In this document: positions 60,201 through 63,200 of the stretch, in pieces
Numbering within the stretch: the first letter of the stretch is position 1
Layout of the letters: every line of letters begins with the position of its first letter
NCBI GenBank assembly: GCA_036339465.1
Contig: JAYZAY010000073.1
Span: 29,502-93,501, forward strand
Reading direction: 5' to 3'
From: Myxococcota bacterium
GTDB taxonomy: Bacteria; Myxococcota; XYA12-FULL-58-9; JABJBS01
DNA length: 64,000 nt
Position numbers: made by a program

Positions 60201-63200
60201 GAGGGACGTTACGCGATAAGAATAAGGCATGCAATCTTTCTCCATTTTAGGTTTGGGCCGGAGCCGTCTCGGTGCGGTGCCTAGGAATTTCAAATCCCCA
60301 TTTTGGCACTAAGGAAGGTAAACAACCCACTCACTTTCCCGTGCTTGTCCAAAAATCACCCCCACCCTTCTCCGAAACCTCAACCAAAAACATCAAAAAG
60401 CCGGCAAAATAACGAGACAAAACACGTCGGTCCAAAGCCGCGACTAGGTCGCTGCCATCAATAATGAAAACAAGTCTGCTTAAATCTTGGAGAGCTCAGT
60501 CTCGGCGAATCCCCAGGCAGACCCAAATGCTTGAGAATATTTCGAATCACAGTTCGCTGGATAATAAACGACACCATCGTCATGCGGCCCTTGCAGGAAA
60601 GGCCGACCAGGCATTGGTGACGACACCAAAACACACCACACAAGCAAAGCCATTCGCCAAGATGCCGCCTACCCAAAAAAGAGGCGAACTCTTGCCACAC
60701 AAAGTCTGGGAGGCTTTGGCCTATGGATTCAAGCTATAAGCAGAAGGCTTCCAAATGGGACTAAATCTTCTTCCGAAAAGTCGAGGCCAAATTTAATGAA
60801 TCGTCACCCTAAGCAGACACCCAGGCTTTGCCTCCAAGCCTTTTAGCCAGTTCTCCTTTATCGAGGGCCTTGTCCATAGCCTCTGCAGGGGCAACAACCC
60901 CCTGATGAACCAATTTAGCCAATTCTACGTTTAAAAATTGGTTACCTTGCGCCGCCCCAGAAACCATGGCATTCGCAATCTGATGCACCTTACCCTCTCG
61001 TATTAAGTTAGCCACCGCGGGAGTGCTCACAAGAATTTCCAAGGCCGCCACTCGGCCCCCCTTGGCCTTTTTGCACAGCGCCTGAGCCACGACACCCTTT
61101 AGACTTTCAGAGAGAGCCGTACGCACCTGGGCCTGCTCTCCAACTGGGAAGAGGCCGATAATCCTGTCAATGGTACTAATGGCGGTGGAAGTATGCAGGG
61201 TTCCAAACACCAGGTGGCCAGTGTTCGCAGTTTCCAGCGCCATCGAGACCGTTTCCAGGTCCCTCATTTCCCCCACCAACACAATGTCTGGGTCTTCCCT
61301 TAAAGCCGCCTTCAAAGCGCGTGTAAAGCTCTGACTGTGGACGCCAATCTCCCGCTGGTTGATCAAAGATTCTCGGCTCTGGTGCACAAATTCCACAGGA
61401 TCCTCTAGAGTCAGGATATGTGTCTTTCGGGTCTTATTGATATAATCGATCATCGCCGCCAGAGTGGTTGATTTTCCACTGCCCGTGGGGCCCGTCACCA
61501 AGACCAGTCCCTTGGGATAATCACAAATCTTGGTGACAATCTCCGGAAGACCCAGTTGTTCCACCGTGAGAATGGTGCTGGCGATCTGCCTCAACACCGC
61601 ACCAACCCCTAGACGGTCTCGAAAAAGATTCACTCGATACCGAGAAACCCCAGGGATAGAGTAGGCAAAATCGCAATCGTTGATCTCCTCAAACGCTTCG
61701 ATGCTCTCCTGCCTCATGATCGGTTTAAATAAGTCAAACACCTCGTTTATACCTAGGGGACTCGCGTCGGCAATTTCTTTAATTTCTCCATCAATACGCC
61801 AGCGGGGTTTGAGGGTTGCGCTCATGTGTAAATCTGAAGCGCCCTCTTCCACCATGCGACGAAGCAATTGTCCGAGCTTCTTAGGCGCCACTGGCGGCGC
61901 CACCGATACCGACATAGGAGCAGCCACCTTAGGTGGCGGACTGATCCCCCCTGAAACAGGAGGCGCGACAGCCATAGGAGGCGGGGCCTCATTTAAGCCC
62001 GACACCGATTGCATCGCTCGATTGAAGAGAGATGCATGGATGCTCACGGGCACCACATCCATACCCGGAAGTAATTTTTGTAGAGCACCTATCACTGAAT
62101 CGGTGACCGCATCCACAAAGCCTACGGTCAATTGATTCTCATCATTTTCCAAAGGCAGCACCCGATGCCTCTGTACAAAAGGCAGCGGCACCAAGCCTAC
62201 CACCGCCCCTTGGGGAACCTTTGCATCGGCTCCAAACTTCGGATGCTTTATCAATTTAGAGGTATCACCCAACCGCAAAGCCAAACTTCTAGATATCGCG
62301 ATCCCAAACCCCGGAACTGCCTCGTAAAGACGCGCAAAAACCGCCGCGTCAAATTGGAGGAGTTGAGCCCCCGCCACAGCTTTAACCGTGGCTGAACGGG
62401 GAGATTCCAGCAGCAGCCCCACTTCCCCAAAGGTTTCGGGTGCGCGGAAGCGACAGATTTCACGGGGGGTGGTGGTCCCACTGGCCATCACCCCCACCTC
62501 GCCCTTTGCGACCATATAGAAGGAATCAAATGGCTGATCCGCCTCAACCACCGTTTCCCCGTCGCCAAATTCCAGTAGGCGAACAGCTTTGGCGACCTTT
62601 TTAATATTGTCGGCCTTCAAACTCTTCAAAAGCGGAGAACTCTGCAAAACCGTAGACACTGATGACAAAACTTCGTCGTTAAATTCAGACACGATGACCA
62701 TGAAATTATCCTATCCCCAAAGAGTGCCGAGCACTGCCCCAAATCCTAACAGGATTCGGATCATGGGAATAAATAATCCTCCCCACACACAGTCAAACCG
62801 GTTCATCTGCCTTTCACAGGGTGGAGCGTAAACAAGGCAGTGGTCTTTTAGGGAAACCCAAGACGCCAAAGCCTATGGAAAAAACAGGTGCTATAAAATC
62901 AAACACCTCCCCCTTAGCAACAACCCCATAGCCATTTCTCTTTGGAGCCGATACGGCATAGGTTTGAATCGATTATCTTAGGCATGAATCATCGAAGAGA
63001 GGTCCACACGAGACAAAAAACTTGCGGCGTTCATTTTCGAGACGATGAGGATGTCGCAGATTTATCAGCCGTTGATGCTGGCAGAGCAGATCCCGAATCA
63101 GTGGGTGTGATGTGGGGACCACAGCTTAATCCATCTTAAAGCAGCGTCGCGTCAAATGAGAAGAGATGAGACTCCGCCCCATCTCCGGGCCTGTTGAAAC

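Follow-up and report, generated by a model that had tools for sequence, protein, structure and literature searches.

A PilT-type ATPase with an N-terminal cyclic-nucleotide-binding module is common in uncultured Myxococcota and is the sole surviving PilT-type motor found in one of their genomes

Can a cyclic nucleotide act directly on the retraction side of the type IV pilus machine? The question is raised by one gene of an uncultured Myxococcota bacterium, located in a 64,000-nucleotide stretch of DNA that was analysed as a whole (hereafter the window). The gene product is a hexameric ATPase of PilT type, extended at its N-terminus by a module composed of a cyclic-nucleotide-binding (CNB) domain and an N1-like domain. 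According to the excerpted text of PMC11656802, the documented control of type IV pilus dynamics by small molecules lies on the extension side and runs by way of c-di-GMP on MshE/PilB and of FimX/PilZ, and the route documented for cAMP is transcriptional, via Vfr. In the full-text literature searched we found no description of a PilT-family motor that has its own nucleotide sensor, and papers beyond that library may exist. We favour the reading, at a probability of about 0.5, that a cyclic nucleotide controls how the protein (P0001), as a PilT-type motor, engages the pilus base.

The features on which this reading draws are as follows.

60809..62701, minus strand: coding sequence of the fused PilT protein P0001 (630 aa), from the ORF list and translation, with ATG as the start
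60809..62701, minus strand: domain order of P0001, namely CNB domain, N1-like domain, linker and PilT-type ATPase, from profile matches
62709..62712, minus strand: AGGA, Shine-Dalgarno-like, 8-11 nt 5' of the ATG, read directly from the sequence
62258..62677, minus strand: predicted CNB domain, residues ~9-148 (Pfam core 44-127), from PF00027 and structure matches
62384..62431, minus strand: putative phosphate-binding cassette FGEVGLLLESPRSATV, residues 91-106, from alignment to PKA regulatory subunits
62000..62221, minus strand: predicted N1-like domain, the alpha/beta half of T2SSE_N/MshEN, residues 161-234, from PF05157
61886..61999, minus strand: Pro/Ala-rich linker, residues ~235-272, from low pLDDT
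60857..61876, minus strand: PilT-type ATPase (N2 and C-terminal domains), residues 276-615, from TIGR01420
61466..61492, minus strand: Walker A motif GPTGSGKST, residues 404-412, from family conservation
60995..61018, minus strand: AVANLIRE, residues 562-569, a variant of the PilT motif AIRNLIRE, from the family alignment

The 630-aa gene described in the survey's finding is real, as judged by its ATG-started frame and the AGGA upstream, and M1 is invariant in an N-terminal alignment of 11 sequences (A3), consistent with this start. The Pfam architecture claimed for it (cNMP_binding, MshEN and T2SSE) was recovered with identical residue ranges, the T2SSE match covering residues 276-546 (3.5e-48). 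The AlphaFold2 model of P0001 has a mean pLDDT of 89.7 and a pTM of 0.77. No sigma-70-like promoter was found in positions 60100-63500, where terminator-like sites were fewer than in shuffled sequences, and Rfam returned zero matches at E up to 1 in positions 59900-64000.

Membership of the ATPase part in the PilT/PilU family is indicated by TIGR01420, which matches residues 276-615 at 455.6 bits (cut-off 319.1; profile positions 2-341 of 343), where 458 bits had been recorded before; 37 of 38 aligned family members match this profile as well. Identity to Pseudomonas aeruginosa PilT is 50-53%, in line with the 53% claimed previously, and the ATPase part superposes on PilT structures with a TM-score of up to 0.96. 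With P0001 as the query, P. aeruginosa PilT (3jvu) scored 376.4 bits versus 262.3 bits for PilU (9n32), and the ATPase part appears closer to PilT than to PilU. Its catalytic motifs, which we take to be the Walker A, Asp-box, Walker B and His-box motifs and whose residues come from the alignment, read GPTGSGKST (404-412), H428...E433 D434 P435 E437, DPDIVLVGEMRD (470-481) and TGHLVFGTLHT (494-504). The key residues of each are kept in at least 108 of the 117 members of the fused family described below (for Walker A, G404 and G409 in 117 and K410 in 114), which suggests that ATP hydrolysis is under selection. The PilT motif AIRNLIRE, so read in P. aeruginosa PilT, is AVANLIRE in P0001, and the family variant is A[VI][AS]NLIRE, with the R replaced by A in 64 and by S in 42 of the 117 members. 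Likewise, the columns that read GMQT in P. aeruginosa PilT read GNQ(L/F) in the fused family and GNQF in P0001.

Upstream of the ATPase, MshEN (PF05157) matches residues 161-234 over its gathering threshold (1.1e-7; 32.2 bits against a cut-off of 23.1), spanning profile positions 11-84 of 90. A full-length phmmer comparison aligned residues 163-547 of P0001 to PilB residues 92-482 of 5tsg, and hhalign placed A3 columns 147-232 on residues 56-141 of the PilB encoded in the same genome (E 4e-4, at a probability of only 34%), directly after the c-di-GMP motif of that PilB (residues 6-58). The N1-like domain alone (86 aa) gave 0 PDB matches by phmmer at E up to 1, and CNB matches, uninformative on the N1-like fold, took up all results of searching with the A3 profile and of the two fold searches run with the N-terminal model; the putative N1-like assignment of residues 161-234 thus rests on sequence profiles only. 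The survey had observed that this stretch is without an obvious c-di-GMP motif, and none was found in the family: the pattern used in the scan, which we take to represent the c-di-GMP-binding motif of NCBIfam NF053729, matched 0 of the 117 members. NF053729 itself was absent among the best 25 of 27 NCBIfam matches of P0001 and matches the PilB of the same genome at 57.2 bits (cut-off 38). From these alignments, the CNB domain appears to occupy the place of PilB's c-di-GMP motif, and a PilT core probably acquired the CNB+N1 module from an extension-type ATPase.

Between the N1-like domain and the motor lies a linker whose predicted confidence is low (pLDDT below 50 at residues 237-254 and 256-266 in the AlphaFold2 model). 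Its length across the 117 members ranges from 18 to 72 residues with a median of 31, and P, A, G, S, T and E together account for a median of 66% of the linker. Rigid coupling of sensor and motor cannot be inferred across such a stretch, which makes docking or recruitment a likelier point of control than a rigid allosteric switch at the motor.

The fusion is not rare. The survey's count of only four other proteins is reproduced by a word-index search and reflects the limits of that search, as exhaustive searching together with a search using the ATPase part brought the family to at least 117 full-length members. About 33 full-length cluster representatives were present among the best 150 matches of the exhaustive search, and PF00027 and PF00437 occurred together in more than 100 of the best 120 matches to residues 276-630. 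The 38 proteins that were aligned carry cNMP_binding (38), T2SSE (37) and MshEN (36), and ATPase domains are 64-71% identical across the family. Named members are nearly all from uncultured Myxococcota, Atlas clusters with 169, 115 and 339 members are mostly from Myxococcota, and none of the carriers found bears the name of a cultured strain; the family is conserved, with uncultured Myxococcota as its main hosts. Databases have long contained the architecture, simply labelled "PilT/PilU family". Two proteins, P0119 (87-kb contig) and P0083 (24.8-kb contig), are short and resemble free-standing CNB-N1 modules, and Actinomycetota Atlas clusters include candidate receiver-domain-PilT and MshEN-PilT proteins, scoring 0.83 or taken from the structure list.

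Is a member of this family a retraction motor? In a quick IQ-TREE run (49 rows, with the root on the long PilB branch), six canonical PilTs, those encoded beside pilB, grouped with other paralogues in an 18-row clade (SH-aLRT 99) that excludes P0001 and every other fused-family row, and the ATPase domains of the fused family appear to branch apart from canonical PilT as a lineage of their own. A canonical pilT beside pilB is also present in all five other fusion-carrying genomes tested. The fusion is thus an accessory paralogue in those genomes, which points to an accessory ancestral role, and the family's usual role may not be pilus retraction at all. The fused gene lies in no pil cluster and has no conserved synteny across 12 stretches (11 loci and the window). 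In the neighbour comparison, shared neighbours occurred in close relatives only, and the largest cluster consisted of spurious antisense frames from high-GC loci. The 21 other genomes of the order yielded no orthologue of the gene, so that it may be a recent import that has yet to be integrated into the pilus machinery; its GC content (53.1% versus 48.9% for the genome, 96th percentile) is suggestive only of a foreign origin.

Much of this would also be expected if P0001 were a PilT paralogue in an accessory capacity, acting only under certain conditions or not as a motor, for example a cyclic-nucleotide-dependent brake that sits in the PilM socket and blocks PilB, or a signalling protein, in which case the pili of this bacterium would be non-retractile or would retract without a motor. 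Besides the coexistence with canonical PilT in five of five other carriers and the orphan gene with its unconserved neighbours, such a role would fit the altered AIRNLIRE and GMQT motifs, the extension-ATPase type of the N1-like domain, the CNB-N1-like P0119 and P0083, which would have to act without a motor, and the partial, conditional phenotypes described for Myxococcus xanthus paralogues in the accessible part of PMC13584747. However, the family keeps all of its catalytic motifs in at least 108 of 117 members and its ATPase domains at 64-71% identity, the ATPase part is nearest to proven retraction motors (TM-score up to 0.96), and in this genome P0001 is the sole PilT-type ATPase beside an otherwise intact machine. 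On balance we regard an accessory or non-motor role here as possible and somewhat unlikely.

Does the N-terminal domain bind a nucleotide? Pfam places cNMP_binding at residues 44-127 over its gathering threshold (1.6e-14; 54.1 bits against a cut-off of 27.5), and the modelled domain has the beta-barrel fold, matching CAP, PKA, PKG, SthK and the cUMP-binding PycTIR domain with Z 14-17.7 and a Foldseek E of ~1e-12. The best fold match is a cUMP binder, binders of cAMP, cGMP and cUMP are all among the matches, and the ligand, whether cAMP, cGMP or a pyrimidine cyclic nucleotide, cannot be told apart. The cassette FGEVGLLLESPRSATV aligns residue for residue with those of PKA regulatory subunits, among them FGEIALLLNRPRAATV of RI-beta, and contains the Gly, Glu, Arg and (S/T)A residues. 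In the 117 family members G92 is kept in 117, E93 in 104, R102 in 107 and A104 in 88, and position 105 is T or S in 107. An intact phosphate-binding cassette at residues 91-106, as the survey had proposed, is borne out by the PKA alignment and by this conservation, and the putative cyclic-nucleotide site of P0001 appears intact. The genome contains 15 matches to class III cyclases (PF00211).

Alternatively, the CNB domain could be a structural or oligomerisation scaffold that binds no nucleotide, making P0001 a constitutive PilT with a docking extension. Non-binding CNB-homology domains are among the fold matches (KCNH2, EAG1), E93 or R102 is changed in ~10% of family members, and an alignment of five sequences shows PRHNT in P0004 and D instead of E93 in P0003. 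Against this, G92, E93, R102, A104 and T/S105 are kept in 88-117 of the 117 members, they align with the cassette that contacts the ligand in PKA regulatory subunits, and the genome encodes many cyclases, which together make a purely structural role very unlikely.

Is P0001 the only PilT of this bacterium? TIGR01420 has five matches in the assembly, and the fused gene alone exceeds the cut-off, in agreement with the survey's statement that it is the only PilT-family gene there. The matches below the cut-off are PilB (186 bits), a GspE/PilB-like ATPase on contig C89 (104 bits) and two weak matches, both of which fall in the gap between pilB and pilC. There the survey had seen pilT replaced by a 107-aa ORF of no family. 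The gap in fact holds a decayed pilT and not an unrelated ORF: the ORF overlaps a pseudogene that retains just PilT residues 18-103 and 289-364, with the ATPase core deleted, two frame changes and one stop. Three studies supply contigs (runs X1, X2 and X8) that read across the deletion junction and differ from it by one letter at most. Cover is missing over parts of the compared stretch in runs X5 and X8, which proves nothing, and in one metatranscriptome run the share of pilB-pilC words present was 0.09, which is no evidence of expression. In relatives G004 and G005 the gene order is rho-pilB-pilT-pilC, and G005 and G007, which belong to the same family, have a tandem double PilT as well. With the syntenic pilT a decayed relic, the status of P0001 as the sole PilT is now stronger than before. 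The rest of the machine is in place, with an intact PilB (776.8 bits), PilC, PilM (227.9 bits) and PilQ (430.2 bits). The canonical pilT being dead and the machine otherwise intact, the fused protein is the only candidate for powered retraction. PilM and PilC of this genome are unusually diverged, which could equally mean that the pilus system is decaying.

That a plain PilT-family gene lies in the ~7% of the genome that is unassembled (92.78% completeness, 102 contigs), so that P0001 is not the sole PilT, would be in keeping with the 1-11 PilT-family matches that the survey counted in relatives and with the tandem PilTs of G005 and G007, and a further paralogue may indeed have escaped assembly, but the survey's caution does not extend to the syntenic copy, which is demonstrably a relic and not an assembly gap, so that at least the principal pilT is gone, and no other PilT-family fragment was present among 20 candidates scored in the assembly; we consider this explanation highly improbable.

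The survey's proposal of a ligand-gated retraction motor therefore stands in part. Its architecture, cassette, fold and sole-PilT status hold up, but a switch "at the motor" is disfavoured by the low-confidence linker, and the fusion is accessory in five of five other carriers. The accompanying reading as S-type motility is not supported, having been carried over from M. xanthus to an uncultured marine lineage. For a PilT-type motor whose engagement is under cyclic-nucleotide control, we envisage that binding at the cassette would reposition the C-helix leading into the N1-like domain, that this shift would expose or hide the N1-like domain, and that the nucleotide would thereby govern the frequency with which extension gives way to retraction. 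The excerpts of PMC11656802 describe a PilM socket into which PilB docks, a contact between N1 and PilM deduced from crystal structures of GspE-GspL, and a stator for which PilB competes with PilT. In M. xanthus, retraction continues without PilT and its paralogues may engage PilC, as stated in the accessible part of PMC13584747.

A bolder version, tentative and in our view rather unlikely, is that a second-messenger-gated motor has replaced PilT altogether in this bacterium. The N1-like domain of the fused protein would claim the PilM socket of PilB, the nucleotide would pick which motor is seated, two different messengers would directly switch extension and retraction (c-di-GMP on PilB and a cyclic mononucleotide on the PilT-type motor), and the unusually fast divergence of PilM and PilC would reflect co-adaptation to the new motor.

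If control of motor engagement by a cyclic nucleotide is correct, a family of at least 117 proteins would link cyclic nucleotides post-translationally to the retraction side of the machine. The fusion is common in uncultured relatives, and in this 92.8%-complete assembly it is the sole surviving PilT-type motor found; the genome is a natural experiment in which the ordinary pilT has decayed and a sensor-bearing PilT remains.

Among known systems, canonical PilT (P. aeruginosa 3jvu/3jvv, Geobacter metallireducens PilT4 6ojx and the Myxococcota PilTs beside pilB) shares with P0001 an ATPase that passes TIGR01420 and the catalytic boxes. P0001 differs in its ~275 extra N-terminal residues (CNB, N1-like domain and linker), in reading AVANLIRE rather than AIRNLIRE and GNQF rather than GMQT, in a gene placed outside pilB-pilC and in its apparently separate lineage. 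MshE and PilB, including the PilB of the same genome, also have a second-messenger sensor at the extreme N-terminus followed by a homologous alpha/beta N1 domain; their sensor is a helical c-di-GMP motif and their motor of PilB type, whereas P0001 combines a CNB beta-barrel with a PilT-type motor.

Similar in layout are three uncharacterised Myxococcota proteins, L007 (G018), L011 (G019) and L031 (G035), which combine cNMP_binding and MshEN with a PilB/GspE-type ATPase. They share the domain order and N-terminal module of P0001 (24-27% identity over residues 15-249), but their ATPase is of extension/secretion type, with TIGR02538 at 432-443 bits, below the cut-off, and a nearly full-length T2SSE match (reaching positions 9-370 of 370). 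Compared with P0001 over the full length by phmmer, these three scored 161-176 bits and the ten complete orthologues 557-663 bits. The occurrence of the CNB+N1 module on both PilT-type and PilB/GspE-type motors makes it look like a portable regulatory cassette for the ATPase superfamily, of use in studying motor recruitment to the pilus machine.

PilU and the PilT paralogues (PilU 9n32; M. xanthus MXAN_1995, 0415, 6705 and 6706) resemble the fusion in that it, too, is extra to a canonical PilT in most carriers, and such paralogues can participate in retraction. The M. xanthus paralogues have disordered extensions at most and are without a sensor domain, as described in the accessible part of PMC13584747. 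Eight PilT paralogues in long frames (G092, G124 and G043) showed no Pfam domain besides T2SSE at E up to 1e-7, in a scan whose Walker A pattern missed four frames (1077, 868, 1672 and 946 aa); the long frames around these paralogues are therefore high-GC open frames or carry unrecognised extensions. Finally, CNB-regulated effectors such as mycobacterial Pat (4ava), SthK, MloK1 and PycTIR (8jsk) have, like P0001, a CNB domain with an intact cassette fused to an effector. In P0001, unlike in these proteins, the effector is a hexameric pilus motor, separated from the predicted sensor by a docking-type domain and a linker of low predicted confidence.

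The most interesting point about the fused motor encoded in the window (g02752) is its situation as sole survivor in the source genome, G000, where the canonical pilT beside pilB is a pseudogene. The protein joins a cyclic nucleotide-binding (CNB) domain, an N1-like (T2SSE_N/MshEN) domain, a linker and a PilT-type ATPase. The order of domains reported in the survey's finding was reproduced, with the same Pfam spans and TIGR01420 above cut-off:

Window 60809-62701, minus strand: fused ORF, 630 aa, ATG start (ORF list and translation)
8-11 nt upstream of this ATG, minus strand: AGGA (read from the sequence)
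Residues 44-127: cNMP_binding (Pfam, 1.6e-14)
Residues 91-106: phosphate-binding cassette, FGEVGLLLESPRSATV, aligned to FGEIALLLNRPRAATV of PKA RI-beta
Residues 161-234: MshEN, PF05157 (Pfam, 1.1e-7)
Residues 276-546: T2SSE (Pfam, 3.5e-48)
Residues 276-615: TIGR01420, PilT/PilU family (NCBIfam, 455.6 bits; cut-off 319.1)

Stretches of 640 and 710 bp that lack long ORFs border the gene, and no pilus genes are among its neighbours in the window. At 53.1%, its GC content exceeds the 48.9% of the genome and falls at the 96th percentile. Elsewhere in the window, a Cys-rich protein of 1175 aa (52996-56523, minus strand) has CxDIDEC repeats that by eye resemble EGF-like repeats of the calcium-binding kind; a HELMH stretch near its C-terminus resembles, again by eye, a zinc-protease motif. 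A 600-aa ORF (48997-50799, minus strand) contains HPYIDGNGRMGR, resembling a Fic-domain motif, also by eye.

The survey had counted only four other such proteins. A new word-index search again gives 4, but this number is misleading: an exhaustive phmmer search with residues 1-275 as query, covering 1.84 billion representatives, yields about 33 full-size, single-stretch matches (568-667 aa), plus shorter ones, among the best 150. In the alignment of the query with these 33 and the 4 word-index matches, cNMP_binding occurs in all 38 proteins, T2SSE and TIGR01420 in 37 each, and PF05157 in 36. With residues 276-630 as query, more than 100 of the best 120 matches carry PF00027 and PF00437. These fused proteins come from Myxococcales, Deltaproteobacteria, Archangium sp. 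and one Kiritimatiellae MAG; identity is 64-71% over the ATPase part and 35-40% over the module (CNB plus N1-like part). The commonness of the fusion is also seen in ESM Atlas clusters, which have 169, 115 and 339 members. A genome scan with the N-terminal alignment gave 16 loci, of which 13 show 33-41% identity across most of the module; the records of these 13 all describe MAGs, assigned to Myxococcota, Myxococcales, Delta- or Proteobacteria. The fused proteins are already public under generic names (“PilT/PilU family type 4a pilus ATPase” or “twitching motility protein PilT”); the full texts searched contained no account of a PilT bearing a CNB domain. Five of seven short matches looked up are fragments on contigs below 1.6 kb. 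Proteins P0119 (236 aa, 87-kb contig) and P0083 (247 aa, 24.8-kb contig) comprise the module alone, ending just past the N1-like domain or inside the linker; each may be either a free-standing module or one part of a split gene.

With the 275-aa module as query, no orthologue of the gene was found in any of the order's 21 other genomes, where the best matches (24-26% identity) are PilB/GspE-type ATPases bearing the same module. Among 401 genomes sampled from the phylum, 20 others match the module at E ≤1e-18, and 13 of these have orthologues at 32-40% identity, spread over families f23 (9 of its 11 genomes), f27 (2 of 9), f22 (1 of 1) and f29 (1 of 1); the largest family has none in 172 genomes. 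Contig ends truncate two of the orthologues and one spans two frames, while the remaining ten are complete. The orthologue of G124 (L020, G124:C11:724564-726374) is split into frames of 352 and 625 aa, by a frameshift or else by an error in sequencing. The gene may have been imported from a different myxobacterial lineage, or it may have been lost widely. Five of five carriers (G115, G124, G092, G043, G243) have both the fusion and a PilT in a 373-400-aa frame adjoining PilB, a setting in which the fused protein could be an accessory or a brake. A PilT paralogue as retraction motor has a precedent in M. xanthus, in which pilus retraction continues without PilT (PMC13584747).

The N-terminal model matches the CNB domains of CAP, PKA, PKG, SthK, MloK1 and cUMP-binding PycTIR (Z 14-17.7), and Foldseek also matches. 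The cassette is intact, as the survey had read it. Across 117 full-length family members, G92 is retained in all, E93 in 104, R102 in 107, A104 in 88 and T/S at position 105 in 107; it is against this retention, complete at G92 and lowest at A104, that a CNB domain binding no nucleotide has to be weighed.

With the full-length query, phmmer aligns residues 163-547 with PilB 92-482 of 5tsg; the N1-like domain by itself has zero PDB matches by phmmer. By hhalign, the N1-like region falls on residues 56-141 of G000 PilB (E 4e-4, probability 34%), directly after the c-di-GMP motif of PilB (residues 6-58; NF053729, 57.2 bits). Judged from this alignment, the CNB domain would thus hold the place of PilB's c-di-GMP sensor. 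A pattern for the motif matches 0 of 117 full-length members, consistent with its reported lack in the MshEN-like stretch. The linker spans 18-72 residues across the family (median 31; median 66% P, A, G, S, T or E). An AlphaFold2 model built from 38 sequences (mean pLDDT 89.7, pTM 0.77) has pLDDT below 50 only at residues 237-254 and 256-266, a low-confidence tether.

The other pilus loci in G000 lie outside the window:

C11, ~131943-132428 (L048:7943-8428): pilT pseudogene; core deletion, two frame changes, one stop
C11, L048:8483-9682: PilC
C67:17612-18670 (L058:1483-2541): PilM, then three short ORFs

Relatives G004 and G005 have the order rho-pilB-pilT-pilC, as at the G000 locus; in G006 and G007, incomplete pilB-pilT pairs lie where contigs end. 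The assembly search found two weak TIGR01420 matches in the G000 pilB-pilC gap (profile 20-95, with an internal TGA, and 284-338). With the 369-aa PilT of G004, tblastn found three pieces: residues 18-39, 38-103 (other frame, one stop) and 289-364 (43% identity, AIRNLIRE decayed into AFTHLVGE). Residues ~104-288, the ATPase core, are missing. The 107-aa ORF previously taken to stand in place of pilT overlaps this relic. The relic recurs, with at most one letter different, in contigs that several studies assembled from public metagenome runs of marine and seawater samples, and runs from three studies span the deletion junction near L048:8200 (X1, 7525-8527; X2, 8162-8368; X8, 8096-8261). No other joint was seen at this junction; X1 may be the source sample of the assembly. 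An extra pilT in an unassembled part of the genome is an unlikely alternative.

PilB (776.8 bits, with c-di-GMP motif) is accompanied by PilC and a pilin-like gene, PilQ shares the contig of PilM, and C89 encodes an orphan GspE/PilB-like ATPase of 420 aa. G000 also has 15 class III cyclase matches and 10 matches to the CNB-module query. In a same-family comparison, divergence in G000 is greatest in the motor-contacting parts, PilM (39% identity to G004, 44% to G005; 70% between those two) and PilC (53, 60 and 71%); PilB gives 71, 71.5 and 78%, and Rho 87% to G004 and 89% to G005. G000 PilM is altered at near-invariant columns (e.g. DIGAS to DIRSS). This divergence may be either co-adaptation or decay.

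We propose that a ligand at the CNB domain would shift the C-helix (residues 132-148), which runs into the N1-like domain, and that the latter may dock in the PilM socket, the presumed site of competition between PilB and PilT (PMC11656802). Given both steps, the nucleotide would set motor access, governing entry of a retraction-type motor onto the machine.

Several related motors were also seen. Module-bearing PilB/GspE-type ATPases (cNMP_binding + MshEN, 660-750 aa) occur at L007 (G018:C8), L011 (G019:C90), L031 (G035:C64) and G043:C169:19195-20739; two belong to the window's own order, and that of G043 is near canonical pilT and other PilB-like genes. G005:C275:12033-14162 and G007:C399:6552-8678 encode tandem PilT-family domains in single open frames of 739-747 aa, and neighbouring PilT pairs occur in G092, G124 and G043. 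Proteins P0183-P0186 (662-758 aa, 51-54% identity to the query ATPase part) have T2SSE as sole family-specific Pfam domain, and none of eight long-frame PilT paralogues has a Pfam domain other than T2SSE. Among ESM Atlas clusters named PilT/PilU family, mostly from Actinomycetota, some have MshEN (162 members) and some a receiver domain of the response-regulator type (59), a hint that further PilT-type ATPases bear sensors.

A quick maximum-likelihood tree was built from 49 ATPase domains, with PilB as outgroup; the outgroup branch is long, which leaves the root unsure. In this tree the query falls within a 9-row set of fused proteins (support 97), and the six canonical PilTs group with the other paralogues in a clade of 18 rows (SH-aLRT 99) that contains zero fused-family rows. 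The best solved relatives of the query motor are Geobacter PilT4 and P. aeruginosa PilT; the latter scores 376 bits, with 50-53% identity and a TM-score of up to 0.96, and PilU scores 262 bits. Catalytic motifs are retained in the family; the AIRNLIRE motif of PilT is replaced by A[VI][AS]NLIRE, and GMQT of P. aeruginosa PilT corresponds to GNQ(L/F) throughout the fused family.
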